64,000 nucleotides of DNA from Trueperaceae bacterium (lineage in GTDB: Bacteria > Deinococcota > Deinococci > Deinococcales > Trueperaceae). Below, piece after piece: positions 6,768 to 64,000 of the stretch; position 1 is the stretch's first letter; every line of letters starts with the position of its first letter. The notes beneath the pieces are model-generated. The model was not told the origin of the DNA, ran no database searches, and saw only the letters and a list, made by a program, of their open reading frames with translations. The position numbers and the translations under genes are program-made. The DNA lies in NCBI GenBank assembly GCA_034520945.1, contig JAXHNB010000008.1, forward strand, positions 96,001 through 160,000, read 5' to 3'.

Positions 6768-8633
6768 TCATGGACCCTCGGCGTCGCCCTCCTCTACCGT
6801 GATCGTGGTTCGTGCGCCCAGTTCGTAGCCGTCGTCCCAGAAGAACCGGATCTCGTACGCCCCCGGCTCCGACGGCGCGACGAATTGCGCGTAGCCCGTC
6901 GGACCGGCGACGTACTGCCAGTCTTCGAAGCTCTCCATCGGCGCATCTACGTTCGCGACCCCGAGCCAGTCCCTGGGGTTGCCTTGCCCATTCGCGTAGA
7001 GGACTTCGATGGGTTCGCCCGGGGCGTACGCGTCCGCGGTGGTCGTCACGGCCGGGTCGTCGGTGCGTTCCGCGAGGGCGGCGGCCTGCTCGGCGAGGGG
7101 CCCACGGCGAGCCAGGTCGACCTTGCCGCCGGGCTGGCAGTTCACGCTGGGGCCGGCGTTGATGTCCCCCTCCGGTCGGGGAATGTCGTAGAAGGCCTGG
7201 ATTCGCGCGTCCAAGCCGTCGACGAGCGCTTCACCCATGCGGAGCGCGTTGCGGGCTTCGGTGTTGCTGTAGTACGTCAGGTACTCGCCAGCCAGATCGT
7301 CGTCACCAGCGTCCAGCAGGCGCGTGGCGATGGCCTCGACGCTCACCAGATCCTCGATCCAACCGTTTTCGTAGCTTTCGAGCGTCTCCGTCACGTCCGG
7401 AAGGAAGCGCCCTGGGTCGGAACAGGTGTAGTACATCAGGCGCTTGAAGGTCCGGTACGCGAAGGGGGTGGCCTCCTGCAACTGGTATTCGGCGTTCAGG
7501 AACTCGGAGCCGGCGTCCCGGTAGAGGTAGCGATGCTTCCCGAACTCCGGCGGCACGTCCGTCGCGCCGATGTGCCAAGGAACGAACGGCGCCGTCACCG
7601 AACCGGTCGGCGCGACCCACAGGCGGGCCAGTTCAGCGTGTTCCAGATCGTCGCGAAGCTCCGCCACCTGCCCGTACCCGTTGGTGTCGCTGGACACGGC
7701 GGGATCCCGCACGACGGCCATGAACTCCCGCAGCGTGACGGGGGCGAGCTCGCGCAGGCGTGCCTCGAAGTCCTGGACGGTGCTCGAGGGCGTGGCGTTC
7801 GCGGCGTAGACCTGCTGCGGGTCGAAGGCCTCACCGGCCTCGGGGTCGTACCAGCCCTGCTCGACCGCGAAGGGGATGAAGTTGTCGGACGCCAGGAACT
7901 GGGCGTCCTCGCCCCCCTCGACCTGCATGGCGTCGAAATCGATGTGATCGCGCGGAATGGGGTTCAGGTACGCGGGGTACGACATCCGCACCTCGTCCGG
8001 CCCGAGACGCTCGGCGACCCACAAGCCCTGACCGCCGGCGTACTGGATCATGACCCACCCCTCGTTGGAGTCAGCAAACAGGTGCGAGTTGCCCCCGTAG
8101 GTCGAGAAGCCGTGCTCGTCGATCACCGCGCCGACGATCTCGACGGCTTCCCGCGCGGTGGTCGCGCGTTCCATGGCGATGCGCGCCAGGTCGCTGTACT
8201 GCGGACCGCGCTGCGGGTCAGGGGTCATCTCCCTGAGTTCGTTGCGCGAGGGCGACCAGATGTCCCTACCGGCGACCTGGTGCTCGTTCAGCCCCCCGTT
8301 GGTCAGCGGGGGCGGGAATCCGGCGAAGTCGGAGTAGTTCGAGGTGATGTACTTGAACGTCGTCTCGACCTGCGGGATCTCCGTGAATTCCCCCGGGTAC
8401 CGGGCTTCCTCGGTGACCCCAACCCGGATCGTCTCGCCCGGCTCGTGCGTCTGGCGCGGCACGATCTCCAGCCAGTGGCCCGAAACCTCGTCGCCGCTAC
8501 CCCCGAGGAAAACGGTGCCATTCTCGGTGAGGTTCTTGCCGACGTAGAGTCCATAACTCGCGTAGGCAGCCGACGACGCCATCAAGACGGCAACCGCAAT
8601 GAGCAAACACGTGTAAAGTCGCGTGCGGATCAT
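6768..8633 (-). CDS. Secreted C69-family (Ntn-hydrolase) dipeptidase with C-terminal beta-sandwich domain
   Basis: Signal peptide ending AYA, then SYGLYVGKNLT; GGLNEHQVA, MERATTAREAVEIVG; C-terminal YAPGEPIEV..DWLGV..PGAYEIRFF. Confidence 0.8.
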   Translation of the reverse strand: MIRTRLYTCLLIAVAVLMASSAAYASYGLYVGKNLTENGTVFLGGSGDEVSGHWLEIVPRQTHEPGETIRVGVTEEARYPGEFTEIPQVETTFKYITSNYSDFAGFPPPLTNGGLNEHQVAGRDIWSPSRNELREMTPDPQRGPQYSDLARIAMERATTAREAVEIVGAVIDEHGFSTYGGNSHLFADSNEGWVMIQYAGGQGLWVAERLGPDEVRMSYPAYLNPIPRDHIDFDAMQVEGGEDAQFLASDNFIPFAVEQGWYDPEAGEAFDPQQVYAANATPSSTVQDFEARLRELAPVTLREFMAVVRDPAVSSDTNGYGQVAELRDDLEHAELARLWVAPTGSVTAPFVPWHIGATDVPPEFGKHRYLYRDAGSEFLNAEYQLQEATPFAYRTFKRLMYYTCSDPGRFLPDVTETLESYENGWIEDLVSVEAIATRLLDAGDDDLAGEYLTYYSNTEARNALRMGEALVDGLDARIQAFYDIPRPEGDINAGPSVNCQPGGKVDLARRGPLAEQAAALAERTDDPAVTTTADAYAPGEPIEVLYANGQGNPRDWLGVANVDAPMESFEDWQYVAGPTGYAQFVAPSEPGAYEIRFFWDDGYELGARTTITVEEGDAEGP

Positions 8634-8886
8634 ATGTGTACCTCCTTAAGAAGGGTACACGACCTTCGTGAGAAGATCGACGCAGTTGCGCCCATTGCCG
8701 AGAACGGTGGTGTCGACGCACGGGTCAGGCACGCCGATCCGCTTGGCGAGTCCCCGACGCACGCCGGTCGGCCGCGTATCATGCCGCCGAAGCGCTGCCG
8801 CGCTGTTCGAGGAGCTCGCGGCCCTGACGGAGGCGGGCTTCGAGGACGACCGGGCGCAGGGGTACGCGTAGGGTCTCGCGCGTCGT

Positions 8887-9249
8887 TCAGGGGCCGGTGA
8901 CGTGCACCTCGTCGGATCCCTCGCGGAACGCTTCGTCGCGGCGGTCCCACAGCGTTCCCTGCCAACCGCTGATCCGGCCCTGGTCCTCGCACTCGGGACA
9001 GATCCAGAGGATTGCGTTTCCGTCTTCGTCTGGCGAGGCGATGATGGTGCCGGGGCACGGCCTGTGGCCTGGCTTGCGGCGGCACGCGACGTTGGTCGGG
9101 TTCGGGGCGTACAGTTCCCAGATCGTCACCCACTCGACGATCGCGCCTTGGAACCGGGCGAGCGTTCGCGCCGGGCCGGGAATGTCTTCGGGAAGCCTGC
9201 CTTCCGGGTCGAGGAAGTCGCGAATGTAGGTGACGGTCATGGTTGGCAT
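8887..9249 (-). CDS. Hypothetical Cys-rich (probable Zn-ribbon) protein
   Basis: CRRKPGHRPCPG and WICPECEDQGRISGWQGTLWD; TACGAT 6 nt upstream of the ATG. Confidence 0.7.
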   Translation of the reverse strand: MPTMTVTYIRDFLDPEGRLPEDIPGPARTLARFQGAIVEWVTIWELYAPNPTNVACRRKPGHRPCPGTIIASPDEDGNAILWICPECEDQGRISGWQGTLWDRRDEAFREGSDEVHVTGP

Positions 9250-9370
9250 GGCGCGATCGTAGCGGAACGCGTGCCGGCGCGGTCCAGGCAGGGCCGATGT
9301 GACGTGCTCACGCCTCACGTTCGGCGAAGGCCATGACGAAGCCCTGACTGCGCCTTACGCGAGCGCGGCC

Positions 9371-9763
9371 CTACAGCGCCGACGCCACGTCCGTATGACC
9401 GAAGTCGCTGCCCTTGAACAGGAGCGGCTCACTCACGGCTTGCGCGAGTGCGTAGGCGAAGCAGTCGCCGAAATTCAGTCGGGCAGGATGTCCGCTTCCC
9501 TTGCCGAAGTCGCGGTAGGCGGCGCGCGCTTCCGCTCCTTGCTCGACCGTGACGGGTTCGATGCGTACGCGCGCAGTGTGGAGCAGTTCGTCGAGCCGGC
9601 GGCTGGCGATCGGATCGCGCGAGCCGTCGATGACGGCGCCGGTCTCGACGTACGACGCGACCGACAGGCGTCGAACGTCGGCGGCGGCGATCGCCCGAGC
9701 GAAGGTCGCCGCATCGGGCTCGGCACGCAGGATGGCGACGAGCGCCGAGGTGTCGATCACCAT
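9371..9763 (-). CDS. vapC: VapC PIN-domain toxin
   Basis: [12 protein letters not shown]...[20 protein letters not shown]. Confidence 0.92.
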
Positions 9764-9779
9764 GGCCGGCGGACGCCCG

Positions 9780-10034
9780 TCACCGGGGCAGGCCGGCGTC
9801 GTCGTAGAGCAGGGTCGCGTGGTCGGTACTGGCGTACGGCTCGCGCAGGTGCGCAGCGCAGTCGCGGCCGATGTCGAGGAGCTCGTCCGCGAGCACTGGG
9901 CGCCGTGTATGGCGCTCGCGCTCCAAGCGTTGACGCAGCGCTTCGGTCACGGCGGCGGTGAGCGATTCGCCCGTCATGTCGGCGAGCTCGCGCGCCAGGC
10001 GGTGGGCGTCATGGTTCTTGATGTTCAAGCCCAT
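9780..10034 (-). CDS. vapB: VapB antitoxin (Rv0623-like)
   Basis: [33 protein letters not shown]...LLYDDAGLP; directly upstream of vapC. Confidence 0.9.
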
Positions 10035-10050
10035 GGTAGATATCTACCAT
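10033..10050. promoter_or_regulatory. Perfect 18-bp palindrome at the vapB start (probable autorepression operator)
   Basis: atggtagat-atctaccat. Confidence 0.7.
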
Positions 10051-10214
10051 TTTTCGATAGCGTTCTACCGGTCTTTGACGTGCGGTCCTCTTGAGGGCGC
10101 GCGGTGAGCCGGGTACGCGACTCCGCACGACCGGCCTGTCGATCGACGATGCGGACGCCCTGATCGTTCTGCCGACCGCCGGCGTTCGTTGCGCGTCCTG
10201 ACCCGGAGCGAAGC

Positions 10215-10630
10215 ATCGACGCGGAGGAGGCGACGCGGCGGTCGATCCTCCGCTACCTGGCGGCGTTCGGCCCCGCGTCGCGGCGGGACTTCGCGCAGTT
10301 CGCGCTGCTGCGGCAGGCCGAGGTCCGTCCCGCCTTCGAGACCCTGGGCGACACGCTGGTGACGATGGAGGGGCCGGGCGGTGCGACGCTGTACGACGTG
10401 CCGGGCGCGCCGCTGCCGGGCGAGGATGCCCCCGCGCCGCCGCGGCTGCTGGGGATGTGGGATTCGGTGCTGCTGGCCTACGCGGACCGGAGCCGCGTGA
10501 TCCCCGAAGACTACCGCCCGCACGTGATCCGCCGGAACGGCGACGTGTTGCCGAGCGTGCTGGTGGACGGGATGGTCGCTGGCGTGTGGCGACATGCGGA
10601 CGGCGGCATAGAGGTGATCGCGTTCGGCCG
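10215..10630 (+). pseudogene. AlkZ/YcaQ-like winged-helix DNA glycosylase fragment
   Basis: RYLAAFGPASRRDFAQF, PPRLLGMWDSVLLAYADRSR, VLVDGMVAGVW; both ends are missing. Confidence 0.75.
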
Positions 10631-11446
10631 CTACCCTGCGCCATCGTTGCGCAGGGTCAAGCGGTCGCTGCGGAGTCGGTGGGAGGCACTGAACAGGCGG
10701 CGGTAGGCCAGCAACGTGACGCCCAGGGCGCCCAACGCCGCGGCCGAGGCGATCATGAACACGATCACGATCTGGTAGCGCACGGCGTCGGCGGGGGCGG
10801 CGCCGGCCAGGATCTGGCCGGTCATCATGCCGGGCAGGCTGACCACGCCCATCACCATCATGGCGTTGATGGTCGGGATCATGCCCACCCGCATCGCCTC
10901 GGCCACCAGCGTGTGCGCGGCCTCCCAGCGCGTAGCGCCGAGGGAGAGGTAGAGCTCGATCTCGTCGCGCCGCGTGACGACGCCTTCGGTGAACCGGTCC
11001 AGCGCCAAGGAGATCCCGTTCAGGATGTTGCCCAGCACCATGCCCAGCAACGGCACCAGGTACTGCGCCTCGTACCACGGCCGCACACGCAGGATGCCGA
11101 CCGCGGAGAGGCCGGTGACCACGAACGCTGCGGTGGTGGTGGAGAGGAGGCTGTCCCAGTAGACGCCGGGGAACCGCCGCGACGTCCGGTTCACGGCCGA
11201 GACGCTGGCGAGCGTCGTCATCACCACGGCGACGGCGAGGACCGGCACGGGATCGTCGAGCTGAAACACCCACTCCAGCACGAACCCGACCAGCAGCAAC
11301 TGCGCCGACATGCGAAGCGAGGCCACCACCAGACTCCGTTGCAATCCCAGGCGCAGCGCCACCGAGAGCCCGACGTTCACCAGAATCAGCAGCGCCGCCA
11401 GGCCGAGCTGCCAGGCGTGGATGGGAAGGTAGGCGGCCTCGCTCAC
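10631..11446 (-). CDS. fetB: Iron-export ABC permease FetB-like
   Basis: RMSAQLLLVGFVL, LGMVLGN, SLPGMMTGQILAG..AVRYQI. Confidence 0.88.
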   Translation of the reverse strand: MSEAAYLPIHAWQLGLAALLILVNVGLSVALRLGLQRSLVVASLRMSAQLLLVGFVLEWVFQLDDPVPVLAVAVVMTTLASVSAVNRTSRRFPGVYWDSLLSTTTAAFVVTGLSAVGILRVRPWYEAQYLVPLLGMVLGNILNGISLALDRFTEGVVTRRDEIELYLSLGATRWEAAHTLVAEAMRVGMIPTINAMMVMGVVSLPGMMTGQILAGAAPADAVRYQIVIVFMIASAAALGALGVTLLAYRRLFSASHRLRSDRLTLRNDGAG

Positions 11447-51408: not shown

Positions 51409-51672
51409 ATGGCGTTGTTTTCGGACGCGTCGTACGAGGAGGTCATGCGGCAATTGACCAAGGGGTTGGCGTGATCGTCGTCGTGGGGGGAGTCATGGGA
51501 GGTGCCGGGGAAGGCGGCGATCGCGCGGGCGCGGCAGCGCCTGGGGGTGGAGCCGCTGGAGATGCTGTATCGGGCGGTGGCGGTGCCGCTGGCTATGTCG
51601 GAGACGGTGGGCACGTTCTATCGCGGTTGGCGGCTGGTGAGTTTGGATGGGTCGTGCTTGGATGTGGCGGCC
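51409..51672 (+). mobile_element. IS4-family transposase remnant with an internal stop
   Basis: LFSDASYEEVMRQL..*..AIARARQRLGVEPL..YRGWRLVSLDGSCLDV. Confidence 0.75.
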
Positions 51673-51690
51673 TATTGGGTGGCCGCGCCC

Positions 51691-51752
51691 TTGACGCTAC
51701 CCGTGAAACTAAAGCAAAATGTCGGCATGTCGCACCGAGATGCCGACATATT
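51691..51752 (+). promoter_or_regulatory. AbiEi promoter/operator
   Basis: TTGACG at 51691; inverted repeat atgtcggcat-N11-atgccgacat (51719-51749). Confidence 0.65.
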
Positions 51753-51780
51753 GCGTCACGCGTCTTCCGCAGGCACGCCC

Positions 51781-52386
51781 GTGTCCGCCGCGCGCGATCC
51801 CGTGGCCGCCTTGCGGGACGTCGGCATCACCGCGTTCTTCCGTCCTTCGCAGCTCCCCGAGGCGGGCTTGACGCGCAACCAATTGCCGGCTCTGTTGCGA
51901 TCCGGGCGGGTCGAGCGCGTCGCCCGCGGCCTGTACCGAATCGCCGACGCCGAAGCGACCGAGAACGACTCGCTCGCCATGGCCTGCGCGAGGGTGCCGA
52001 ACAGCGTGGTTTGCCTGCTCACGGCGCTGCGCGTCTACGAGATCGGCACTCAATCTCCGGCCGACGTATGGCTCGCGATCCGACACAAGGCTCGCGTGCC
52101 CCGCCTCCCTGAACTCCGGCTCCGCACGGTGCGCTTCAGCGGGCCTGCCTGGACCTTCGGCGTTCGGGAAACGCGCTTCGAAGGCGTCGCGGCCCGGATC
52201 ACCTCCCCCGCCCGCACCGTCGCCGACTGCTTCCGTTTCGAGCGTCTGGTGGGGGCCGAGGTCGCCCTGGAGGCCTTTCACGACGCGCTACGCCAGCGCA
52301 AGGTGACGATCGCGGAGCTGTCGCGCGTCGTGGAGGTCCTGCCTTCGCGACGTTTGAGCGCGGCGCTCGATGTGGTGGCGATGTGA
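51781..52386 (+). CDS. abiEi: Type IV TA antitoxin AbiEi (start may be 51727)
   Basis: VERVARGLY, VVCLLTAL..EIGTQSP..VWLAI, SPARTVADCFRF. Confidence 0.85.
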   Translation: MSAARDPVAALRDVGITAFFRPSQLPEAGLTRNQLPALLRSGRVERVARGLYRIADAEATENDSLAMACARVPNSVVCLLTALRVYEIGTQSPADVWLAIRHKARVPRLPELRLRTVRFSGPAWTFGVRETRFEGVAARITSPARTVADCFRFERLVGAEVALEAFHDALRQRKVTIAELSRVVEVLPSRRLSAALDVVAM

Positions 52387-53577: not shown

Positions 53578-53771
53578 CGGCAACGTAGCTCGCGTGGACA
53601 GAGATCACGTCCCGGTGGTTCACCGAGGAGGGGCCACGCAGCGCCCGCCGAGACGAATTGCTTATGGAAGTGCGGTTCGTGGTGCTTGCAGATAGGCCGG
53701 CGCTTGAACCCACATCCTGACGGGATCGGCGGCCATCGTCACGTCACTTGCTGTGGTACGCAGAACCCAAT

Positions 53772-56612
53772 ATGGAAACCAAACAGCATCGAGCCCTCGC
53801 AAAGCCGTTCGATCGCGTGTTCGCCACGGAGGACATGGCGATGAAGGTTCGCCCGATCGTGACGGCTCTCCTGGAGGAGATCGGGATTCGGGGCCCGCAC
53901 GATCCTAGGTTGGCGACGACGGTCTTTCGGGACAAGCTGCACGTCAACGTAGGCAACTGGCTGGTCGTAAGTCTGCTCAGTGACCGGCAAGGCCCGAGCG
54001 AGATCGGTCTTCTCTTCCGGCAGGACCACGGCCTTGCAGACTGGAGGGCTTCGAATCCCTTCGCCAACGACACCACTGAGCCGCCGGTCGTTCTGGCGTA
54101 CGTGCCGTACGAGGATCTCGAGGACCTTCGCGAGACGCGGAGCGAGGAGCTGTTCGGCGCTCTGCAGCAGGCCGCGCACGTGGCACGCCGTCGCTTCAGC
54201 GGTTGGTCCGGCAGTCCGTATAGACGTGCCCACGTTCCTTGGATGGCGGAGGGCTACTACGACGAGGCTCTCCTCGCAAGCCTGCTGCGTGAGGGCCTTC
54301 CAGATCAGGAGTCGGCACGGCTACACGTGACGCCGTCCGACACCTCTTGGGGACAGGAACGCGAGTCGCGCCAGCATCGGCTCGTTCCGACGTCGGTGGC
54401 GGACGACTCGTTCAATGCCACAGTGGCTCCGGCGATTCGCCGGGGGGACGTTCTCCTGCAGTTGGACGGTCGCAAGGCCCTCTCCGCGGCGCTGGTGCTT
54501 GGTGCGACCACGGCTGGTGATGCATGGGAACCGGGCCGTGAGCCCGGACAGACTGCGTCGCATGCCTTCGATGTGCGCGTACGAGGATTCCCGACGAGCA
54601 TCGATGTGGATCCGGCCGCTGTGCCGCTACCTTCGGAGGCGGGTGGCCGAGTCGCGTCAGGGTCCCACGAAGCGAACTCGACCTACGTCGTGCCTGACGG
54701 CCTCGCGGGGGCACTCCTCACGGAGGTTCTCGAAGGCGTACCCGAGCACCTACAGGACCTCGTAGCTTGGGTGAAGCAGGGCGTCGAGGCCCGCACGGAC
54801 GAGGTGGACGAGGCGCGGAGGGTGCTTCCCCCCGGGCCGATCACCGATCGCTTGCGCAGCGGCGACGTCCGTGTCGTCAAGATCGCCCCAGGTCGCGGAG
54901 GGGTCCTGTGGCAGGAGTTCGTCGAGGCGGGCATCGCCGCCGTGGGCTGGGACGATGTCGGGGATCTCCGCGCCTACGCGGACTTCGACGCATTCCGGAC
55001 GGCGTTCCGGGAGCGCTACCCGTATGGCGGAAGCCTACCGGCTTCGACGAAGAAGGCTCGCGAGGTCTGGACGCTGCGGGAGCTGAAACCTGGCGATCTG
55101 GTGGTCGCGAACCGAGGAATCGGCGAGGTCCTGGGTATCGGCGAGGTGATCCAGCCGGCCTACGGGTGGCGCGACGATCGGGGCGAGTACCGTCACACAG
55201 TTCGGGTCCGATGGGACGAGCGCTACCAGACGAAAATTCCTCCCCAACGGTACTGGGCGGTCGTCACGGTCCTGGACCTCGAGCCCGACGCGCTCCTTCG
55301 GCTTCTTCAGGCCGACCCCGAAGGCATCGGCGATTCGCCGGCGCAGCGCGTCCGGCTCTTGAAGGTCCCATCGAGCAAGGCGCGCCTTCGCGAGTTCGTC
55401 GGCGACGGTGCTACCGGCGACCGGGTCTCGTTGCCCGTCGGAGAACACGAAGGCAATGCCGATCTGGAGAAGGGCGACGTGCTGGTGCTCTGGCAATCGG
55501 GGGACGACGACGGCCTGCATGGGTTGGGCGAGGTGCTCTCCTCCCCGCAAGAGGATCCAGACGACCCGGAGGGTTCCCGCACGGTCGACGTTCGGATCAC
55601 GGGCGCGTTGGCCGAGCCGATTCCGAGCCGAGACGTCGCCGAGGACCATGCGCTGTCGGGCCTCGAGGTCCTGCAAGCACCGAGTCGCTCCGTATTCGTC
55701 GTCGAGGCACCCGAGTGGGAAGCCCTGGGGTTTCTCCTGTCAGGTGACGTTCCCCCAAGCGAGGATCGTCAGCCCGGCTACGACGTTCAAGACGTGGTCG
55801 AGGCGACCGGCCTGCCGAACGACATGCTCGAACGCTGGATTCGTTCGATCCATCGCAAAGGCCAGGCGATCCTCTATGGGCCTCCCGGGACCGGCAAGAC
55901 GTACGTAGCCAAGGAGCTCGCCAAGCACTTGGTGGCCGGTACGGACGGCTTCGTTCAGGTCTTGCAGTTCCACGCCGCCACCGCCTACGAGGACTTCATC
56001 CAGGGCCTCCGGCCCGAGATCGACGCAAGCGGGAACCTTTCCTACGTGCTGGCGCCGGGAGGCTTCCTGCGATTCGTTCGGGAAGCGCGGGGGCGCCGTG
56101 GCGTGAGTGTTCTGATCCTGGACGAGATCAACCGCGCCGATCTGGCCCGCGTCTTCGGTGAGCTGATGTATCTGCTCGAATACCGTGACGAGACCGTCGC
56201 GTTGGCGGCTGGCGGCAAGAAGCTGTCCGTGCCGAAGAACGTCCGCATCCTGGGCACCATGAACACGGCGGATCGTTCCGTAGCCCTCGTCGACCACGCG
56301 CTCCGGCGGCGTTTCGCCTTCCTGCGGCTACAGCCCGATTTGGAACTCCTGCGGAACTGGCATCGTGGCAAGGCCGGAGAACGGTTGGCCGACCGGCTTA
56401 CCGACGAGCTGGCGCGCCTGCATAGGCGCATCGACGATCCGCACCTCGCCCTTGGGATCAGCTACTTCCTCGTGGAGGATCTGCCCATGCATCTCCCGGA
56501 CATCTGGCGCATGGAGATCGAGCCCTACCTCGAGGAGCTCTTCTTCGATGAGGCGGATCCGCTCGGCGAGTTCGTTTGGGAGGCGCTGGCCGTGCGTCTG
56601 GACCTCGCGTGA
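53772..56612 (+). CDS. mcrB: McrB-family AAA+ GTPase with multiple N-terminal EVE/PUA-like domains
   Basis: GPPGTGKT, QFH...YEDFIQG, ILDEINR, GTMNTADRS, DHALRRRF. Confidence 0.92.
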   Translation: METKQHRALAKPFDRVFATEDMAMKVRPIVTALLEEIGIRGPHDPRLATTVFRDKLHVNVGNWLVVSLLSDRQGPSEIGLLFRQDHGLADWRASNPFANDTTEPPVVLAYVPYEDLEDLRETRSEELFGALQQAAHVARRRFSGWSGSPYRRAHVPWMAEGYYDEALLASLLREGLPDQESARLHVTPSDTSWGQERESRQHRLVPTSVADDSFNATVAPAIRRGDVLLQLDGRKALSAALVLGATTAGDAWEPGREPGQTASHAFDVRVRGFPTSIDVDPAAVPLPSEAGGRVASGSHEANSTYVVPDGLAGALLTEVLEGVPEHLQDLVAWVKQGVEARTDEVDEARRVLPPGPITDRLRSGDVRVVKIAPGRGGVLWQEFVEAGIAAVGWDDVGDLRAYADFDAFRTAFRERYPYGGSLPASTKKAREVWTLRELKPGDLVVANRGIGEVLGIGEVIQPAYGWRDDRGEYRHTVRVRWDERYQTKIPPQRYWAVVTVLDLEPDALLRLLQADPEGIGDSPAQRVRLLKVPSSKARLREFVGDGATGDRVSLPVGEHEGNADLEKGDVLVLWQSGDDDGLHGLGEVLSSPQEDPDDPEGSRTVDVRITGALAEPIPSRDVAEDHALSGLEVLQAPSRSVFVVEAPEWEALGFLLSGDVPPSEDRQPGYDVQDVVEATGLPNDMLERWIRSIHRKGQAILYGPPGTGKTYVAKELAKHLVAGTDGFVQVLQFHAATAYEDFIQGLRPEIDASGNLSYVLAPGGFLRFVREARGRRGVSVLILDEINRADLARVFGELMYLLEYRDETVALAAGGKKLSVPKNVRILGTMNTADRSVALVDHALRRRFAFLRLQPDLELLRNWHRGKAGERLADRLTDELARLHRRIDDPHLALGISYFLVEDLPMHLPDIWRMEIEPYLEELFFDEADPLGEFVWEALAVRLDLA

Positions 56613-57865
56613 CCAACGGTTGGTTGCAGCTCGCTGAGCACGAGACGCTCGACATCCCGGAGTTCCCACTCGGTGCTGGCGAGGAGTTGTGGAATCGCTA
56701 CGCCCGTACGGGGGCGGGTCTGGACATCGAGTTCCCGTCGCCCCGAACGGGTGGGGCGTGGCGGATCACCAGTCGTGGCGTCGTGGGTGCGTTTCCACTT
56801 CGAGATGGAGGCGGCGTACGCGTCGTGCCGAAAGTGCCGATCGCCAACCTGCTTAGGATGATCGAGGTGGCCCAAGACGTATCCGTGCGAGAGCTCGCCG
56901 GGCAGGTCTCGGTCGCGTCGGTCGATGATCTCTTCGACCGGCTCATCGCTGCGCTCGCCACAGGCGTCCGGCGACGCCTACGTCGGGGCCTTTTGAAGGC
57001 GTACGTCTCACGCGACGACCGCCTCCCGTACCTGCGGGGAAGGCTCGACGTTCGGCGGCATGTCCGTAGCGGCGCACATACCGTCTTTGACGTGAGCTTC
57101 CAAGAGCCGTCCGTCGACCACCATGACAATCAGGTTCTCTTGGCGACGCTCGCGCGCGTCGTCCGGTCGCCACTCCTACGCAGCGAAACGCGAGCGTCGG
57201 TTCGGAAGGCGCTGCGCGCCCTCTCGACCGATGTGTCGCTGGTTCCCGTGGCAGCCCAAGACGCCGTCCGCGGGCCGTACCATCGCCTTCGCAGGGACTA
57301 CCTGCGGTTGCACAGATTGTGCCGGTTCCTCCTCGGGCACAGCGGACCGATGGTCCAGGAGGGGACCTACGTGACGACCCCGTTCCTGGTGGACATGCCG
57401 AGCCTCTTCGAGACGTGCGTGGCGCGCGGCCTGGAGGAGGCGCTCCCGCGCGGCTTGCGTGTCGCGCGGCATGTCCGCGAGCGTCTCGATCCTGCTGGGC
57501 GTGTCGTCTTCGATGTCGACCTCGTGCTGCAGGAAGCGTGGTCGGGGCGGCCGCTCATCGTGCTGGACACCAAGTACAAGGATCACGACGCGCCCAGTGC
57601 TGCCGATGTTCAACAGGTCGTCGCCTATGCTGCGGCACTAGGCTGCGAGGAAGCCGCACTGGTGTACCCGACCGAGCATACGTTCGCGCCGGCGCGGGCA
57701 GGGGAGATCGTCGTTCGCCGGCTGGGGGTGCCGCTCGACGGTGATGTGGGCGTGGCCTTTCGTGAGCTTGCCGCAACGCTCGTCATGTACGCCGGAGCTG
57801 AGCACGTAGACATCCGCGCCGAGGATGGGACCCGCCGCTACGGCGTGGGCCATGCGTCAACGTAG
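56609..57865 (+). CDS. mcrC: McrC-family PD-(D/E)XK nuclease
   Basis: VVPKVPIANL, LRGRLD, FLVDMPSLFE, DLVL..VLDTKYK..DVQQVVAYA; GTGA overlap with mcrB. Confidence 0.9.
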   Translation: MTNGWLQLAEHETLDIPEFPLGAGEELWNRYARTGAGLDIEFPSPRTGGAWRITSRGVVGAFPLRDGGGVRVVPKVPIANLLRMIEVAQDVSVRELAGQVSVASVDDLFDRLIAALATGVRRRLRRGLLKAYVSRDDRLPYLRGRLDVRRHVRSGAHTVFDVSFQEPSVDHHDNQVLLATLARVVRSPLLRSETRASVRKALRALSTDVSLVPVAAQDAVRGPYHRLRRDYLRLHRLCRFLLGHSGPMVQEGTYVTTPFLVDMPSLFETCVARGLEEALPRGLRVARHVRERLDPAGRVVFDVDLVLQEAWSGRPLIVLDTKYKDHDAPSAADVQQVVAYAAALGCEEAALVYPTEHTFAPARAGEIVVRRLGVPLDGDVGVAFRELAATLVMYAGAEHVDIRAEDGTRRYGVGHAST

Positions 57866-59052: not shown

Positions 59053-59406
59053 TCAGTGGGCGCCCTTCGCATCGTCGGCGCGTAGGTTGGCCTGGCCGGC
59101 GCCCAGCGGGATGCCGCGTTCGATTTCTTCGCCTGCTGCGTCCTTGGCGAGGGTCAGGTCGTAGTGGTTCTGGAGGTTGAGCCAGAACTCGGGGCTGGTG
59201 CCGAAGAAGCGGCCGAGCCTGAGGGCGCTGTCGGCAGAGATGCGTCGCTTGCCGAGGACGATGGCGTTGACGCGTGGGGCGGGCACGCCGATCCGCTTGG
59301 CGAGTTCGTACTGGGAGAGACCGTACTCGTCGAGGAACTCGTCCTTGAGGATTTCGCCGGGATGGACGGGTGGGATGTCTCGTGGGGTCGTGCGATTTGG
59401 GCTCAT
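59053..59406 (-). CDS. higA: HigA antitoxin
   Basis: PVHPGEILKDEFL..LSQYELA..ISADSALRLGRFFGTSPEFWLNLQ..YDL. Confidence 0.93.
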   Translation of the reverse strand: MSPNRTTPRDIPPVHPGEILKDEFLDEYGLSQYELAKRIGVPAPRVNAIVLGKRRISADSALRLGRFFGTSPEFWLNLQNHYDLTLAKDAAGEEIERGIPLGAGQANLRADDAKGAH

Positions 59407-59434
59407 GGTTCCTCCTGGACATAGGCAAGGAAGG

Positions 59435-59716
59435 TCAATGGTAGTCGTTGATCGTCACGTCGTGCGCATTGCCGTCGTCCCAGCGAAAGCAGACACGCCA
59501 TTGGTCGTTGATGCGAATACTGTGCTGGCCCTGCCTCTTGCCCCTGAGTGCTTCGAGTCGGTTGCTAGGTGGGCTACGAAGGTCATCGAGGTTGGTGGCG
59601 GCGTGCAACAGTAGCAGCTTCTTGTGGGCGCGTCGTTGAATGTCGGTGGGGAGGCGCCGAGAGTGAATGCCGTGAAAGAGGCGTTCGGTTTCGGCGTCGG
59701 CGAACGACGCGATCAC
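59435..59716 (-). CDS. higB: HigB toxin
   Basis: IASFADAETERLF..DLRSPPSNRLEAL..SIRINDQWRVCFRW..DYH; inverted repeat cataacgc..gcgttatg upstream. Confidence 0.93.
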   Translation of the reverse strand: MIASFADAETERLFHGIHSRRLPTDIQRRAHKKLLLLHAATNLDDLRSPPSNRLEALRGKRQGQHSIRINDQWRVCFRWDDGNAHDVTINDYH

Positions 59717-60388
59717 GTCCCAAGCATAACGCGTCGCGTTTATAATGTCCAGCGTTATGAATCGTTGTCGGTGCCTACATGGACTCTCTGGGTTCTACGA
59801 ACCTGCCGTCGTAGCATGAGCGGCCGAAGCGGTCGTTCCTGGCGTGGCACAACGAAAACGGGTTCGAGGCGGGCGGGTGTGCTCGGGCCGGCCGTCGCGT
59901 CGGCGTCACGCCGGGGCCCAGAGTCGTCCGGTGCGAGGCATGTTGCGCACGCCATTTGGCGTGTCTGGAGCGACGATTCGTACGCCGAGAGCGACCGCGG
60001 CGGTAGGCCCGTTCGCATCGTCAAGGACACGATGCGCAGGCGCTCGATGCGCTCTGGCTGGGCACCCACCCAAAACCGTCCGGCCAGCGCCCCGCATACC
60101 CATCCAGGTGCGACGCGCCGGTCGGCCGGGGCTCGGAGGGTGGCGGCACGGTCCCCGCATGAATGCGCGTGCCTTTTCATCCGAGCGGTGCCTCGTCAGG
60201 CAGGGTCAGCATGTCGCACGCGGCGGCGGCTGACATCCGGTACTGCGACGCCTCCCAAGATGGTGCCGGCAATGGCCGAGGGCACGGGGGCATCGGACGG
60301 GGTGGTCACGCCCGGCGCCGGAACATCGGCGGCAGGGGACGCGCCCGCGTACGGGAAGACCAACCGAGACCGGGCGGTACCATGCCCC

Positions 60389-60751
60389 ATGCCCGACCCC
60401 GGCGATGCCTCGATCCACGACCTGACCGCCCAAATCCTCGCCTTCCGTGAGGCCCGCGACTGGGCGCAGTTCCACGGCCTCAAGGACGAGGTGCTGTCGC
60501 TCCTGAGCGAGGCGGGCGAGCTGGCGGAGCATTTCCGCTGGTACGAGGGCGAGCGGCTCCAGGTCCACGTGCAGGGCCGCAAGGAGGACGTCGGCGACGA
60601 ACTCGCGGACGTACTGTACTGGACCCTCCTCCTCGCACATGACGTGGGCGTGGATCTGGCCGATGCGTTCGAGCGCAAGATGGTGAAGAACGAGCGGAAG
60701 TACCCCGTGGGGGCGGCACGGGGCCGTGCGGACAAGTACACGGACCTCTGA
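60389..60751 (+). CDS. MazG-like nucleotide pyrophosphohydrolase
   Basis: FREARDWAQFH, EAGELAEHF.W, DELADV, KNERKYP..KYTDL. Confidence 0.9.
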   Translation: MPDPGDASIHDLTAQILAFREARDWAQFHGLKDEVLSLLSEAGELAEHFRWYEGERLQVHVQGRKEDVGDELADVLYWTLLLAHDVGVDLADAFERKMVKNERKYPVGAARGRADKYTDL

Positions 60752-60997: not shown

Positions 60998-61657
60998 CTA
61001 CCGTTGAGGTTCTAGTTCGCGGAGGAGGCCCCTGAAGCAACGCCTGCTCGCAATACGACGAAACTGCCGTAACCGCGCGTTGAAGCGGCACGCGCCGAGG
61101 CGTTGGCCACAGCCGCATGGGCAAGGGAGCTTGTTTGCTCTGCGCTTCTTCATGCCGAGGTACTTGAGAGCCCTCCACGCTTGCTCGCCGTCGTCCAGTC
61201 CCATCATGTCTGCATAGTCGTTGAGGGCGCCCGCTGTCCCATGAGGCAGCTCACCGAATGCGAATGGGCCACCATTCTTCAGTTTCACCGAGGTAGCGAA
61301 CAGGTACGGAACGAGGCAGTTCGCCGCGTAGCCTGACAGAGTCGGCTGTCGGTCCAGTTCGCACAGTAGGCGAAGGGGCGAGCCAAGGCACAGCGAGCCA
61401 TCGCTGTTGACGTGGTACTCACCCGTTGCGGGAATCCTTCCGCCCGTCTCGAAGGTGATGGGTAGGTCACGGGGGAAGTTGTCAGGTACTCGAATCTTGA
61501 GCCGGAACGTCTCGGACATTCGCGCGCCGTCGTCCGCGAGCGCCACGAAGTCGAAGTGGCCTACCAGCGTGAGCCCAGGTCGGTGTACTGGCCTGATTGC
61601 CATACGTGGGTACGTACGGAGGAAGCGACTGAGGCCAATGTCGTTGGCTTCGGTCAC
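60998..61657 (-). CDS. E2 ubiquitin-conjugating-like protein with C-terminal SEC-C-like Zn knuckle (CBASS accessory)
   Basis: IRVPDNFPRDLP.TFE, HVNSDGSLCLG, ELPHG, CPCGCGQRLGAC; GTGA overlap with the CD-NTase stop. Confidence 0.8.
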   Translation of the reverse strand: MTEANDIGLSRFLRTYPRMAIRPVHRPGLTLVGHFDFVALADDGARMSETFRLKIRVPDNFPRDLPITFETGGRIPATGEYHVNSDGSLCLGSPLRLLCELDRQPTLSGYAANCLVPYLFATSVKLKNGGPFAFGELPHGTAGALNDYADMMGLDDGEQAWRALKYLGMKKRRANKLPCPCGCGQRLGACRFNARLRQFRRIASRRCFRGLLRELEPQR

Positions 61658-62862
61658 CTGCGCCAAGGTTTGGGCGAGCTGCTGCCGCGAATATGGTGAA
61701 CTGCGCTGGCTTGTTGGTGCGTGGCCGCCGAGCCACCAGCATTCCCAAAAATCTGTTTATCGATCTTCACTCCAAACTTCGCTTCGGCCTGCTCGACCAT
61801 GGCATCAACGGTCGGGGCGTATGTGAACAGATCGAAGTCGGTCCTGGCCTGATGAAGCCACAGTCGAAACTTCCGCTCCAGTTCGAGTCTGCGTCCTTCC
61901 CGTGTACTCCACCTGTCAGCGAAGTCTTCCTCTGGGTTTACGGGGTTCGGCACGCGCGGAGGGACCGTGGCCACATGCTCCTCGATCTTGGATAGGATGT
62001 TCGCCATCGCTTGGTGCAGGTTCGCCTCGCCTGCGTACGCTCGTGCCGCCAACGTGGTGATGATGATGGAGGCCGGCTGTGTGTCCGAGTTGCGCTCGAA
62101 CATGACGTCTCGGTGCCGCTTTAGGATCTGAACGACGCGCTGGAGCGGCGTCTTCCACAGGTGGGTGGGAAGCTTGTCCACGCTTTTCACCTGTTCTCTC
62201 AGCGCCTTCCACTGGAGGTACGTTTCGGCCTGTCGCATGCGCGCCTCGAACCACCGCGCGTAACCTTCCGGGTTGCTTGTGAACCAATCATCACAAACTG
62301 AGTGGTAGTGGGGGTGCCGGTCGTCGGTAATCACGACAGTCAGACGCGCCACGTCCTGAGCGAGTGGCTCGGGCGCGCCAGCCGTCACCATCAAGTTCTG
62401 GAGGTGGGATCGTACGGGTTGGGCTTGCGGAATGGCGGGCACGACGTCCATGTGAAACGCCAGGTCGTCCTGGTAGATCAGCCGCCAGCAGCGGTGCTTC
62501 TCTTTGAGTTGCTCGCTGATCCTCCGCTCGCGCCGGTAGGCGTCCAGGTCGGCGCCGACCATCTCCTTCACTTGTTCTTGGGTCCAGCTGCTATGGTCAA
62601 TGTCGCCGTGGAGTACGCAGGTGAGGTCAAGGTCGTAGTCATCGCGCTTCCAGGGTCGCGTCACTGTTCCAAGCCGAAACGAGCCCTGCGGGGAAACGTC
62701 AGGATGGTAGCGAGAGCTGGTAGAGCGTATTGGCTCCTGTAGCCACGTGCCGAGATCTCGGTAGCGGGAGGAGGCGCTCTCGTATGCGGTGTTCGGAATG
62801 TCCAGTAAGTCGGCCAAGGCATCGAGCGGGGTCCTGGGCATGGAAAATTCACCTGCGCTCAC
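61654..62862 (-). CDS. CD-NTase (cGAS/DncV-like, SMODS) cyclic nucleotide synthase
   Basis: QGSFRLGT, DYDLD, HRCWRL.Y, FHMDVVPAI, SNPEGY..WF, LKRHRD, NPVNPEEDFADRW; AAGGAGG RBS before GTG. Confidence 0.92.
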   Translation of the reverse strand: MSAGEFSMPRTPLDALADLLDIPNTAYESASSRYRDLGTWLQEPIRSTSSRYHPDVSPQGSFRLGTVTRPWKRDDYDLDLTCVLHGDIDHSSWTQEQVKEMVGADLDAYRRERRISEQLKEKHRCWRLIYQDDLAFHMDVVPAIPQAQPVRSHLQNLMVTAGAPEPLAQDVARLTVVITDDRHPHYHSVCDDWFTSNPEGYARWFEARMRQAETYLQWKALREQVKSVDKLPTHLWKTPLQRVVQILKRHRDVMFERNSDTQPASIIITTLAARAYAGEANLHQAMANILSKIEEHVATVPPRVPNPVNPEEDFADRWSTREGRRLELERKFRLWLHQARTDFDLFTYAPTVDAMVEQAEAKFGVKIDKQIFGNAGGSAATHQQASAVHHIRGSSSPKPWRR

Positions 62863-63092
62863 TTGGCACCTCCTTCGGGAAGGGCATCGGAAGTACGGCG
62901 GGTGCGCATTTGAAGTGGCGCCCACAAGAAGGCAAGGGACTTGCTTTCGATATGCTCAGGGGATCGTATGTCACTCTCATTCGCTCCTCGGTACGGCCTT
63001 CGCTTGCGCGAGCACTGTTTCGTGCATGAGGGGTCTGGCCAGCGGCCCCACGGCAGCAAGCGACGCCAAGGCTTCGCGCGTAGCGTCCTCAC
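62859..63092 (-). other. 77-aa ORF overlapping both neighbouring genes by GTGA
   Basis: GGAGG RBS inside the patatin 3' end; its start overlaps the patatin stop and its stop overlaps the CD-NTase start; no recognisable domain. Confidence 0.35.
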
Positions 63093-64000
63093 GCTGGTAC
63101 CTCCCCGTTACGCGGGTAGATTGGCTCATACGATTCAGCCTTGTGTTTGAAGAGGTCGGCGGCTTCTCGCATTAGCGGCCTACTTTCCAAGCGCCCACGC
63201 GCGATCAATTTCTTCGTCGACACGCTGTCGAGCTCGAACTCGTTGTCCCGAACAACAGGGTCTAAGCGCAGGATGGCGCCCGTTGGCAGGAGGTGGCGCG
63301 CAATCTCGGTCGCGCTCTGACTTTGCGCCTTCATGATTAGGTCGGTGGCGTGTCCAGCCCACCTGAGACGCCCTCCAGCATCAAGGGAACTCGGCCGATG
63401 TCCCACGGGTGTCGTTGTCCCAACGGTGAGAATCCGTATGCGGTCGAGGGGCGCACCACAGAATGCAACCGCTTCGGCGAGTCCCACTAGAATCGGGTTG
63501 TTGGCCCACAGTCCTCCGTCCACGTGGCGTATGCCGTCCACGTGGGTGCTAGCAGGGAAGTAAGTGGGGGCTGCGCTCGTGGCAAGGCCTACCTGCCACA
63601 TCGGAACGTGCCAATCGCGGCGGAGGGTGGGGTGGTGTGGAGTCTTAAAGAGGTAGACCTGGTCGTTGTCGAGGTTGAATGCCGGTACTACGAGGCGCTT
63701 GTCGCTGTCACCCAGGAGGGCGTTGCCAAGCGCAATTCCTAGCGCCCTTCGGAGGTTGCCTTGATCGTACTTCGCTCGAAGGCAATGACGAACGGTCTTC
63801 GTTCGACGCCCACCGTTCTCGAAGATTCTCGGTCCCTCCTCGACAAAGAAGTCCACAAGCTCACGAGGTCGCATACCGTTGCCCAAGGCGAGCGCGATGA
63901 TTCCGCCGGTCGACGTGCCCGCAATCAGGTCGAAATGGTCCGTGAGCCGAGTCTGAACGTCCTCTTCGAGCGCGGCAAGAACCGCAGCCGAGAAGAGCCC
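63089..64000 (-). CDS. capV: Patatin-like phospholipase, CBASS CapV-type effector (5' end outside the window)
   Basis: FDLIAGTSTGGIIA (GxSxG), ATSAAPTYF, DGGLWANNP. Confidence 0.9.
   Translation of the reverse strand, partial: GLFSAAVLAALEEDVQTRLTDHFDLIAGTSTGGIIALALGNGMRPRELVDFFVEEGPRIFENGGRRTKTVRHCLRAKYDQGNLRRALGIALGNALLGDSDKRLVVPAFNLDNDQVYLFKTPHHPTLRRDWHVPMWQVGLATSAAPTYFPASTHVDGIRHVDGGLWANNPILVGLAEAVAFCGAPLDRIRILTVGTTTPVGHRPSSLDAGGRLRWAGHATDLIMKAQSQSATEIARHLLPTGAILRLDPVVRDNEFELDSVSTKKLIARGRLESRPLMREAADLFKHKAESYEPIYPRNGEVPA

Follow-up and report, generated by a model that had tools for sequence, protein, structure and literature searches.

An E2-only CBASS operon of a Trueperaceae bacterium with a Pro-Trp-tailed cyclase and an E2 carrying a predicted zinc knuckle

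At the right end of a 64,000-nucleotide stretch of a Trueperaceae genome (GCA_034520945.1, contig JAXHNB010000008.1; G000:C8:96001-160000, referred to here as the window), three minus-strand open reading frames (ORFs) encode a patatin, a nucleotidyltransferase of the cGAS/DncV-like type (CD-NTase) and a stand-alone E2 protein (Table 1). The locus is almost certainly a complete E2-only (type II-short) antiphage system based on signaling by cyclic oligonucleotides (CBASS), a kind that is known and catalogued. E2-only CBASS has been portrayed as an ancestor-like ubiquitin cascade in minimal form, and what is known of its mechanism comes from a single system, in which the tail of the cyclase carries a conserved glycine. 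The large E2 family found here breaks this glycine rule, with partner cyclases that end in Pro-Trp and a variable stretch, and with E2s that form a separate sequence family bearing a predicted zinc knuckle. We consider it likely that the Pro-Trp (PW) tail is the element recognised by this E2.

The class assignment draws on the genes present and on those missing. All three proteins are matched over nearly their full length by PADLOC, as CBASS effector, cyclase and E2, and the gene set named in the original prediction (patatin, CD-NTase and E2-like protein on the minus strand) is borne out by the ORFs, Pfam and PADLOC together. The cyclase has as its neighbor a stand-alone E2 with an invariant cysteine, and both E1 and JAB genes are missing. 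No Cap2- or Cap3-like gene was found near the operon within the window or in the flank read 14 kb beyond it (L001), and the region upstream of position 64,000 holds a ParE/UvrD-like gene, GmrSD and bacteriophage exclusion (BREX) genes instead. In the whole genome, which is 97% complete, the sole match to the Cap2 profile is a ThiF-like stretch (9.6e-13, positions 336-466 of 602), a match that also rings in 11 of 14 reference genomes used as a control, and Prok-JAB finds no match. The earlier remark that no E1 or JAB gene was in view therefore holds beyond the window and genome-wide. The E2, at 219 residues, has no E1 part, and the locus does not belong to the Cap2/Cap3 type II systems.

The cyclase is matched by the Pfam family of DncV-like nucleotidyltransferases (5.1e-12) and by the PADLOC CBASS cyclase profile PDLC00780 (1.4e-116), and among structures in the PDB by VcCdnG of Vibrio cholerae (9WOO, 3.6e-108) and SmCdnG of Serratia marcescens (8HSB chain A, 1.8e-24). 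The GS motif and the catalytic aspartate triad that mark a CD-NTase are intact, with GSFRLG at residue 60 (Gly-Ser at 60-61), Asp-Leu-Asp at 77-79 and Asp139; G60, S61, D77 and D139 are invariant among 90 aligned relatives with the same tail type. When the cyclase is modelled alone, the predicted local distance difference test score (pLDDT) is 92 overall. Only the first four residues and the tail are modelled with low confidence (pLDDT 48-65 for residues 374-402 and below 50 for residues 376-387). A disordered activation loop of ~30 residues has been described as a protease tripwire in the available text of Hobbs and Kranzusch (PMC12991175). The model of this cyclase has no low-confidence internal loop, the segment between strands 136-145 and 176-178 being helical in a block of pLDDT 88-98. 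For that reason a protease-tripwire trigger is not claimed for this cyclase, and a model of this kind does not exclude one.

The cyclase terminates in ...IRGSSSPKPWRR. The original prediction had pointed out that this end lacks a glycine or alanine, and indeed the last residue is arginine and the tail reads ...SSSPKPWRR, with no glycine at or next to the C-terminus of the kind conserved in S. marcescens. A search for cyclase homologues scored 7999 candidates, of which 3879 fell at E ≤0.001, and the tails of the best 120 were examined. Ninety of these end in Pro-Trp, preceded by Lys, Arg, Ser or Gln and followed by 2-6 further residues, 15 end in a sequence like ...H-K-F-Y-G, 10 end in ...RGGGR(L/F)G, and 5 are fragments or odd. 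Within the PW class the motif is KPW in 70 cyclases, RPW in 18, and SPW and QPW in one each, so that the Pro and Trp at positions 399 and 400 are invariant (90/90). The alignment of these 90 cyclases has no tail glycine among its invariant or nearly invariant columns. The end that follows the tryptophan varies in both sequence and length, with 2-6 residues among the 90 proteins and 1-11 residues among 73 genomic loci. As judged from this alignment, the relevant feature is thus the family-wide, invariant Pro-Trp without a conserved glycine, and not the terminal arginine; this feature was overlooked in the original prediction. The tail glycine is called highly conserved among E2-associated cyclases in the available text of the reports on the Serratia system (10.1101/2022.05.25.493364; PMC12948482), a statement that, going by the same alignment, does not hold for the PW-tailed family.

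One way to retain glycine chemistry would be for the E2 to cut after Gly393 (IRG|SSSPKPWRR), a residue that this copy has 9 positions before its C-terminus, or for an E1 encoded elsewhere to activate the cyclase. This is scarcely credible, as Gly393 is not conserved, and the genome encodes neither a Cap2-like E1-E2 (the ThiF-like match being a housekeeping one) nor a Prok-JAB protein. Gly393 was considered as a conjugation site and rejected, the corresponding stretch in relatives reading ITDAAKPW, IRDAPPKPW or ISSAAKPW.

The tail type and the type of E2 go together across genomes. A scan with one genome per species gave 591 relatives, from which the best 80 loci were kept; 73 of these encode a cyclase with a PW tail and 7 a cyclase with another tail. 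In 71 of the 73 PW-tailed loci, the cyclase is followed on its own strand by an ORF of this E2 family (at least 100 bits), which in most cases abuts or overlaps the stop of the cyclase. The two exceptions are L027, where the contig breaks off 190 nt into the E2, and L073, which has no E2. None of the 7 other-tailed loci carries this E2 family at 100 bits or more. Their partners differ with the tail: a cyclase ending in ...RGGGRLG adjoins a Cap2 E1-E2 (L003; 1.3e-137), one ending in ...HKFFG adjoins a short, 147-residue E2 of another PADLOC family (L039), and two ending in ...GRHY plus 2 residues adjoin a distant E2 (PDLC00872, ~1e-33) that ends in a SEC-C motif (L032, 2855-4780; L034, 5914-7911). 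Of the remaining three, two have AGS-C sensor domains (L056, L070) and one has no partner (L036). The GRHY sister branch is a second pairing of an aromatic residue and a short end with a SEC-C E2.

A tree of 119 cyclases, computed with the last 35 residues removed, recovers each of the two Gly-ended classes as one clade (support 100 and 99), and both group with a PW-tailed clade (support 96). The tail therefore changes together with the partner inside one cyclase family of 47-61% identity, which marks the tail as a partner-specific element.

The E2 is matched by the PADLOC CBASS E2 profile PDLC00859 (9.8e-79) over profile positions 4-216 of 221 (213 covered), and has no Pfam match at E ≤0.1. 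Its model (pLDDT 91) has a UBC/UEV core that spans residues 1 to ~150. The best Foldseek matches are UFC1 and the UEV domains of Tsg101 and Vps23 (E from 2e-3, probability 1.00). A comparison by VIA-align over 48,161 chains returned the Tsg101 UEV domain (Z 8.9), UFC1 (Z 8.8), the Vps23 UEV domain (Z 8.7) and the Serratia E2 (SmE2, 8HSB chain B; Z 8.3, root-mean-square deviation (rmsd) 3.8, 19% identity), the last with the longest alignment, at 131 residues. These UBC matches together span Z 8.3-8.9, rmsd 3.3-4.0 and 113-131 aligned residues, and Cap2 (7TO3 chain A) follows at Z 6.3. PADLOC, Foldseek and VIA-align thus agree on the E2-like fold that had been proposed from the sequence, and the case in which the ORF lacks such a fold does not apply. 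The motif HVNSDGSLCLG occupies residues 82-92, giving an H-x-N motif with a catalytic-type cysteine ~8 residues on, and its first part (HVNSDGSLC, residues 82-90) aligns with the HV.S.G.ICL motif of eukaryotic, Ube2W-like E2s. Among 120 members of the E2 family, C90 and H139 never vary, and H82, C114, K170 and K171 are kept in 90% or more of the sequences.

At the level of sequence, this E2 family stands apart from SmE2, which (as 8HSB chain B) was found neither by phmmer nor by a profile of 120 family sequences at E up to 10. Clustered at 50% identity, the family comprises 2014 clusters at E ≤0.001, 1316 at E ≤1e-10 and 261 at E ≤1e-30. No fusion of cyclase and E2 was found at E ≤0.001 in a search of proteins 390-2000 residues long, and no cyclase fusion occurs among the best 150 of the 2014 E2 representatives. 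Some long representatives carry extensions of other kinds (P0293, 469 residues; P0327, 321; P0377, 283; P0247, 330), with a ~90-residue insertion between the UBC core and the knuckle in P0247 and a 250-residue helical C-terminal extension past the knuckle in P0293.

A model of the complex, in which cyclase and E2 were folded together with a separate alignment for each, supports binding of the E2 to the C-terminal region of the cyclase. The interaction prediction score from aligned errors (ipSAE) was 0.82, 0.82 and 0.83 in three runs, compared with 0.00 for the best of 3 controls; of 157 solved complexes 116 attain this mark, as do 2 of 215 mismatched pairs. At least 93% of the contacts are common to the runs, and the pLDDT of the partner is at least 85. 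The N-terminal helix and the sheet of the E2 make confident contacts with cyclase helices 254-262 and 326-362. The interface also takes in cyclase residues 386-394 and 396-402 and E2 residues 79, 82-84, 90-93, 111-121 and 132-147 (including 139-140), placing both the cyclase tail and the His/Cys/His site of the E2 within the predicted interface.

How such a complex might work is suggested by the Serratia system. According to the available text of the reports on it (10.1101/2022.05.25.493364; PMC12948482), purified SmE2 cuts SmCdnG after Gly406, in a reaction that depends on C101 and H87 and by which even a fused MBP or GFP is removed. After cleavage, the cyclase stays on SmE2 through a thioester at C101 or an isopeptide at K159, and SmE2 can build cyclase chains that activate synthesis of cyclic GMP-AMP (cGAMP). 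The Cys and two His of SmE2 are described as necessary for cleavage and for conversion of the bond, and as a set conserved only in the E2s of E2-CBASS (available text of 10.1101/2022.05.25.493364). By analogy, we infer that the Cys and two His of the present E2 would correspond to this catalytic set residue by residue. The idea in the original prediction that conjugation would need prior processing of the C-terminus fits this published mechanism, and is not new in that SmE2 itself cuts the tail.

We propose a mechanism for the Trueperaceae operon that, as a whole (E2-only CBASS, a cyclase regulated by its E2, and a covalent route at Trp400), we hold tentatively, at a little less than an even chance. 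Upon infection, the CdnG-like cyclase would make a cyclic dinucleotide, probably 3'2'-cGAMP as for VcCdnG and SmCdnG. From what is known of the families, this dinucleotide would activate the patatin phospholipase, and the membrane would be destroyed and the infection aborted before the phage matures. The E2 would serve as a regulator of the cyclase, and the model is consistent with its docking on the C-terminal helices of the cyclase, with the flexible tail reaching into the His82/Cys90/His139 site. As in Serratia, Cys90, helped by His82, would attack the bond after Trp400, and the variable end, here Arg-Arg, would leave. The cyclase might then stay attached to the E2, or be transferred to a lysine or linked to other cyclase molecules, with synthesis restrained or primed until infection. 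The C-terminal helices and the SEC-C knuckle, which are absent from SmE2, might replace its regulatory C-terminal loop as a lid or a phage sensor; this is a guess, because the knuckle lies outside the predicted interface.

The variable end after the tryptophan argues against recognition of a fixed C-terminal carboxylate and fits a leaving group or a discarded pro-piece. Taken by itself, a covalent link through Trp400 is drawn by analogy, and we regard it as possible but doubtful. A more specific version of the chemistry is somewhat less likely still: the E2, with no E1, would cut the cyclase after the tryptophan, carry it on Cys90 as an acyl-enzyme and hand it to a lysine, a SEC-C lid would let phage infection switch the reaction, and the GRHY branch (L032, L034) would act likewise through its tyrosine. 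If true, ubiquitin-like conjugation would here proceed, for the first time, through a C-terminal tryptophan. A covalent mechanism would widen the range of ubiquitin-like acyl donors, and a non-covalent one would mean that an E2 with an intact active site acts as a peptide clamp.

The main rival to the covalent mechanism is such a clamp. The E2 would grip the PW tail in the way that UEV domains take up peptides rich in proline, keeping or letting go of the cyclase with no bond ever made to it, and the Cys/His site would serve binding or another substrate. The best fold matches include the UEV domains of Tsg101 and Vps23 (Z 8.9 and 8.7), solved with PTAP and PSDP peptides, and the tail here is itself proline-rich (SPKPW). 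Moreover, the tail has no conserved small residue, and the complex model needs no covalent bond. UEV domains, however, have lost the catalytic cysteine, and the clamp would fit poorly with an E2 family in which, across 120 sequences, C90 and H139 do not vary and H82 hardly does, a pattern that suggests chemistry rather than mere binding. The variable length of the end after the tryptophan is also more easily explained as a leaving group. We therefore view the clamp as possible, on the unlikely side.

An intermediate alternative is that the E2 acts as a protease only, trimming the cyclase after Trp400 for maturation or inactivation, with the acyl-enzyme hydrolysed and neither conjugation nor chains formed. 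The site has a Cys together with two His, variation is seen both in the residue at P1' and in the length of the tail, and cysteine-protease activity of SmE2 on C-terminal extensions is described in the available text of the Serratia reports (10.1101/2022.05.25.493364; PMC12948482). In that system, however, cleavage is coupled to transfer to a lysine (available text of 10.1101/2022.05.25.493364), and the nearly invariant K170 and K171, just before the knuckle of the present E2, could be acceptors. Trimming alone is thus improbable.

Several points weigh against the proposed covalent regulation of the cyclase by its E2. To our knowledge, ubiquitin-like conjugations use a small C-terminal residue, Gly or Ala, and a tryptophan acyl donor would be unprecedented. 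The complex is predicted at the level of contacts, which give neither the distance from Cys90 to Trp400 nor the tail residue that faces Cys90; the score of the complex may partly reflect likeness to the solved SmCdnG-SmE2 complex (8HSB), and the knuckle (residues 179-190) lies outside the interface. A relation to SmE2 cannot be detected by sequence, which leaves fold and gene context to carry the analogy. The co-occurrence of tail and E2 type rests on about two tail switches, with one inspected locus for each Gly-ended class. Lastly, VcCdnG was reported to be active in vitro, and the available text of the report on it mentions neither an E2 nor the tail (PMC12804361).

Beyond the UBC core, E2 residues 152-219 form helices around CPCGCGQRLGAC (residues 179-190). 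The zinc-knuckle motif picked out in the original prediction consists of Cys179, Cys181, Cys183 and Cys190, and these four cysteines are invariant in 120 sequences of the E2 family. In a sample of 194 sequences, made up of 120 database proteins and 74 ORFs from the loci, the C-x-C...C pattern is present in 190, the other 4 being cut by a contig end or disrupted in frame. In 162 of the 194 there is a cysteine at position 5, and neither His nor Cys at either of the two positions that follow the last cysteine; 16 have the reverse arrangement, with no cysteine at position 5 and a histidine after the last cysteine (CPCGSG....CH); 11 have both and 1 has neither. This reciprocity is what a four-ligand metal site predicts. 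From these patterns, the knuckle is a putative variant of the SEC-C motif with the fourth metal ligand moved, and a metal site is predicted.

The SEC-C label given in the original prediction is accordingly right in kind, although this copy has no Pfam SEC-C match at E ≤0.1. When five His-form or distant relatives were compared with SEC-C (PF02810), two passed the cut-off of 20.4 bits (21.1 and 23.9 bits) and three scored 16-18.7 bits. The SEC-C motif, which is the metal-binding end of SecA, shares the CPCG.G....C pattern with the knuckle, and the relatives that pass in Pfam are of the His form (CPCGSG....CH). The knuckle here differs in having a cysteine at position 5 and no histidine after the last cysteine, and in being joined to an E2, not a translocase.

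Four known systems provide the closest comparisons. The S. marcescens E2-CBASS (SmCdnG and SmE2, PDB 8HSB) shares a clade-G-type cyclase with a long C-terminal extension, the absence of E1 and JAB, an E2 of UBC fold with a Cys and two His, and docking of the E2 on the C-terminal region of the cyclase with the tail in the active site, which for the present pair is predicted only. It differs in the tail (conserved Gly406 plus one residue, as opposed to invariant Pro-Trp plus 1-11 residues), in the E2 (162 residues ending in a loop with K151, H152 and K159, as opposed to 219 residues with helices and a SEC-C knuckle) and in the effector, which is a 2TM-SAVED protein with an exonuclease gene, where a patatin is found here.

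VcCdnG with Cap5 (PDB 9WOO) provides the closest solved cyclase, which aligns to within one residue of the end, its tail reading ...SSDPKPWF where that of the present cyclase reads ...SSSPKPWR. VcCdnG makes 3'2'-cGAMP and activates Cap5, according to the available text of the report (J Biol Chem 2025, PMC12804361). Cap5 is an HNH-SAVED effector, and the effector here is a patatin. In three loci from Marinomonas and Thalassotalea (L008, L009 and L013, 6001-7878), the tail is identical to the aligned tail residues of 9WOO, and a 237-residue SEC-C E2 is encoded directly downstream.

The Enterobacter cloacae CdnD-Cap2 system (PDB 7TO3), a type II system with Cap2 E1-E2 and Cap3 JAB, shares a ubiquitin-like enzyme that acts on the C-terminus of the cyclase and the E2 fold, and a close relative of the present cyclase, ending in ...RGGGRLG, adjoins a Cap2 gene. 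The operon here differs in having no E1 domain, no JAB and no terminal Gly or Ala. In the V. cholerae DncV-CapV system, CapV is a patatin effector of CBASS. Systems of this kind share a patatin phospholipase encoded directly beside the cyclase, and the difference lies in the partner cyclase, which is CdnG-like here and not DncV; for this reason the nucleotide that activates the patatin is probably not the 3'3'-cGAMP of DncV.

No publication on the subclass with a PW tail and a SEC-C E2 was found in a search whose scope left out figures, supplements and subscription-only versions (including that of Yan et al. in Nature Microbiology), and tail alignments in published figures could include PW-type sequences. 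The suggestion of a little-characterised regulatory mode hence stands insofar as no experimental work on the subclass was found, and falls short in that the architecture is catalogued in PADLOC.

The effector is encoded directly upstream of the cyclase on the same strand. It is matched by Pfam Patatin (PF01734; 1.9e-24 for the part within the window and 2.3e-30 for the whole gene) and by the PADLOC CBASS phospholipase effector profile PDLC00757 (2.5e-95). Its catalytic motifs are all intact, namely the oxyanion loop GGGFKG, the G-x-S-x-G serine motif GTSTG and the aspartate motif DGG. Upstream of PW-tailed cyclases the effector is mostly a Cap5-like HNH-SAVED nuclease. A patatin takes this place in at least 17 loci, which makes the present gene order a common one.

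The original prediction described the operon as tightly coupled, which is true of the cyclase and E2 genes, where the TGA stop of the one and the GTG start of the other overlap as GTGA, and not of the patatin and cyclase genes, which are 226 nt apart. Among related loci, there are many in which the effector ORF directly adjoins or overlaps that of the cyclase (e.g., L002, 4962-5993 and 5980-7173). A scan for promoters and terminators returned no promoter-like site in the operon and 3 terminator-like sites, the number expected from shuffled sequence. Within the gap, the operon strand has a single weak terminator-like hairpin (~62932-62944), of a kind no more frequent than in shuffles. The G+C content of positions 60998-64000 is 0.609, compared with 0.688 for the window and 0.68-0.72 for the contigs, in agreement with the lower value noted for the operon at the outset.

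Table 1. Features of the CBASS operon and of neighboring defense genes, in window coordinates.
Feature	Position	Strand	Remarks
Patatin-like phospholipase effector (CapV-like)	63089..>64000	-	Runs past the window end; whole gene at L001 4089-5129
Gap between patatin stop and cyclase GTG start	62863..63088	.	226 nt, from ORF coordinates
CD-NTase (cGAS/DncV-like cyclase, CdnG-like), 402 residues, GTG start	61654..62862	-	Frame open to 62925
Flexible C-terminal tail of the cyclase, residues 374-402	61657..61743	-	Low model pLDDT
Lys398-Pro399-Trp400 tail motif, then Arg-Arg end	61663..61671	-	Alignment of relatives
Stand-alone E2 (UBC/UEV fold) with C-terminal helical/zinc-knuckle module, 219 residues	60998..61657	-	PADLOC, model
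E2 active-site stretch His82-Val-Asn...Cys90	61388..61414	-	Conservation
Predicted SEC-C-type zinc knuckle Cys179-Pro-Cys181-Gly-Cys183-...-Cys190	61088..61123	-	Conservation
AbiEi-like regulator	51502-52386		
EVE-AAA_5 McrB-like protein	53748-56612		
McrC	56576-57865		
HigB/HigA	59053-59716		
MazG-like pyrophosphohydrolase	~60302-60751		Convergent with E2

The CBASS operon sits on a defense island. Upstream of the patatin gene there follow, in order, a divergent ParE/UvrD-like gene, a GmrSD-Schlafen/AlbA_2 gene, an ISL3 transposase fragment, BrxA, BrxB, BrxC and a PglX-like methylase. The UvrD-like helicase is split over three ORFs that correspond to its N-terminal domain, a continuation and its C-terminal domain (L001 5173-7212; contig C8 160173-162212), the first of which also matches the ParE toxin, and the gene is probably frameshifted. 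The GmrSD_N and Schlafen/AlbA_2 fusion, the ISL3 fragment and the BREX genes occupy L001 7427-18408. On the other side, downstream of the E2, come the convergent MazG-like gene, HigB/HigA, McrC, the EVE-AAA_5 McrB-like gene and the AbiEi-like gene (Table 1).

The E2 is single-copy in the genome. A search of 40 related genomes turned it up in 1, and in none of the 10 that belong to the same genus. From this patchy occurrence we infer that the operon is an accessory, probably transferred, element, and for this genome it is ordinary, being one more accessory defense operon on the island. The one copy found among these 40 genomes (L084; G024:C1:466904-467542) has an in-frame TGA and may be broken. 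It could be argued that the operon here is likewise a decaying or inert remnant that no longer works, given this patchiness, the broken-looking relative, the unusual gap between patatin and cyclase and the neighboring UvrD-like gene in pieces. Against this, the three ORFs are full length relative to their profiles, all catalytic motifs are intact and the GTGA overlap of cyclase and E2 is kept, which makes a dead system highly unlikely.

In eight of the PW-tailed loci (L007, L012, L014, L019, L021, L028, L035 and L044; ~7570-11060), a type I restriction R subunit is encoded directly after the E2, and all eight match PADLOC REase_I (E ~1e-204 to 0), which points to a recurring neighborhood of CBASS and type I restriction-modification.

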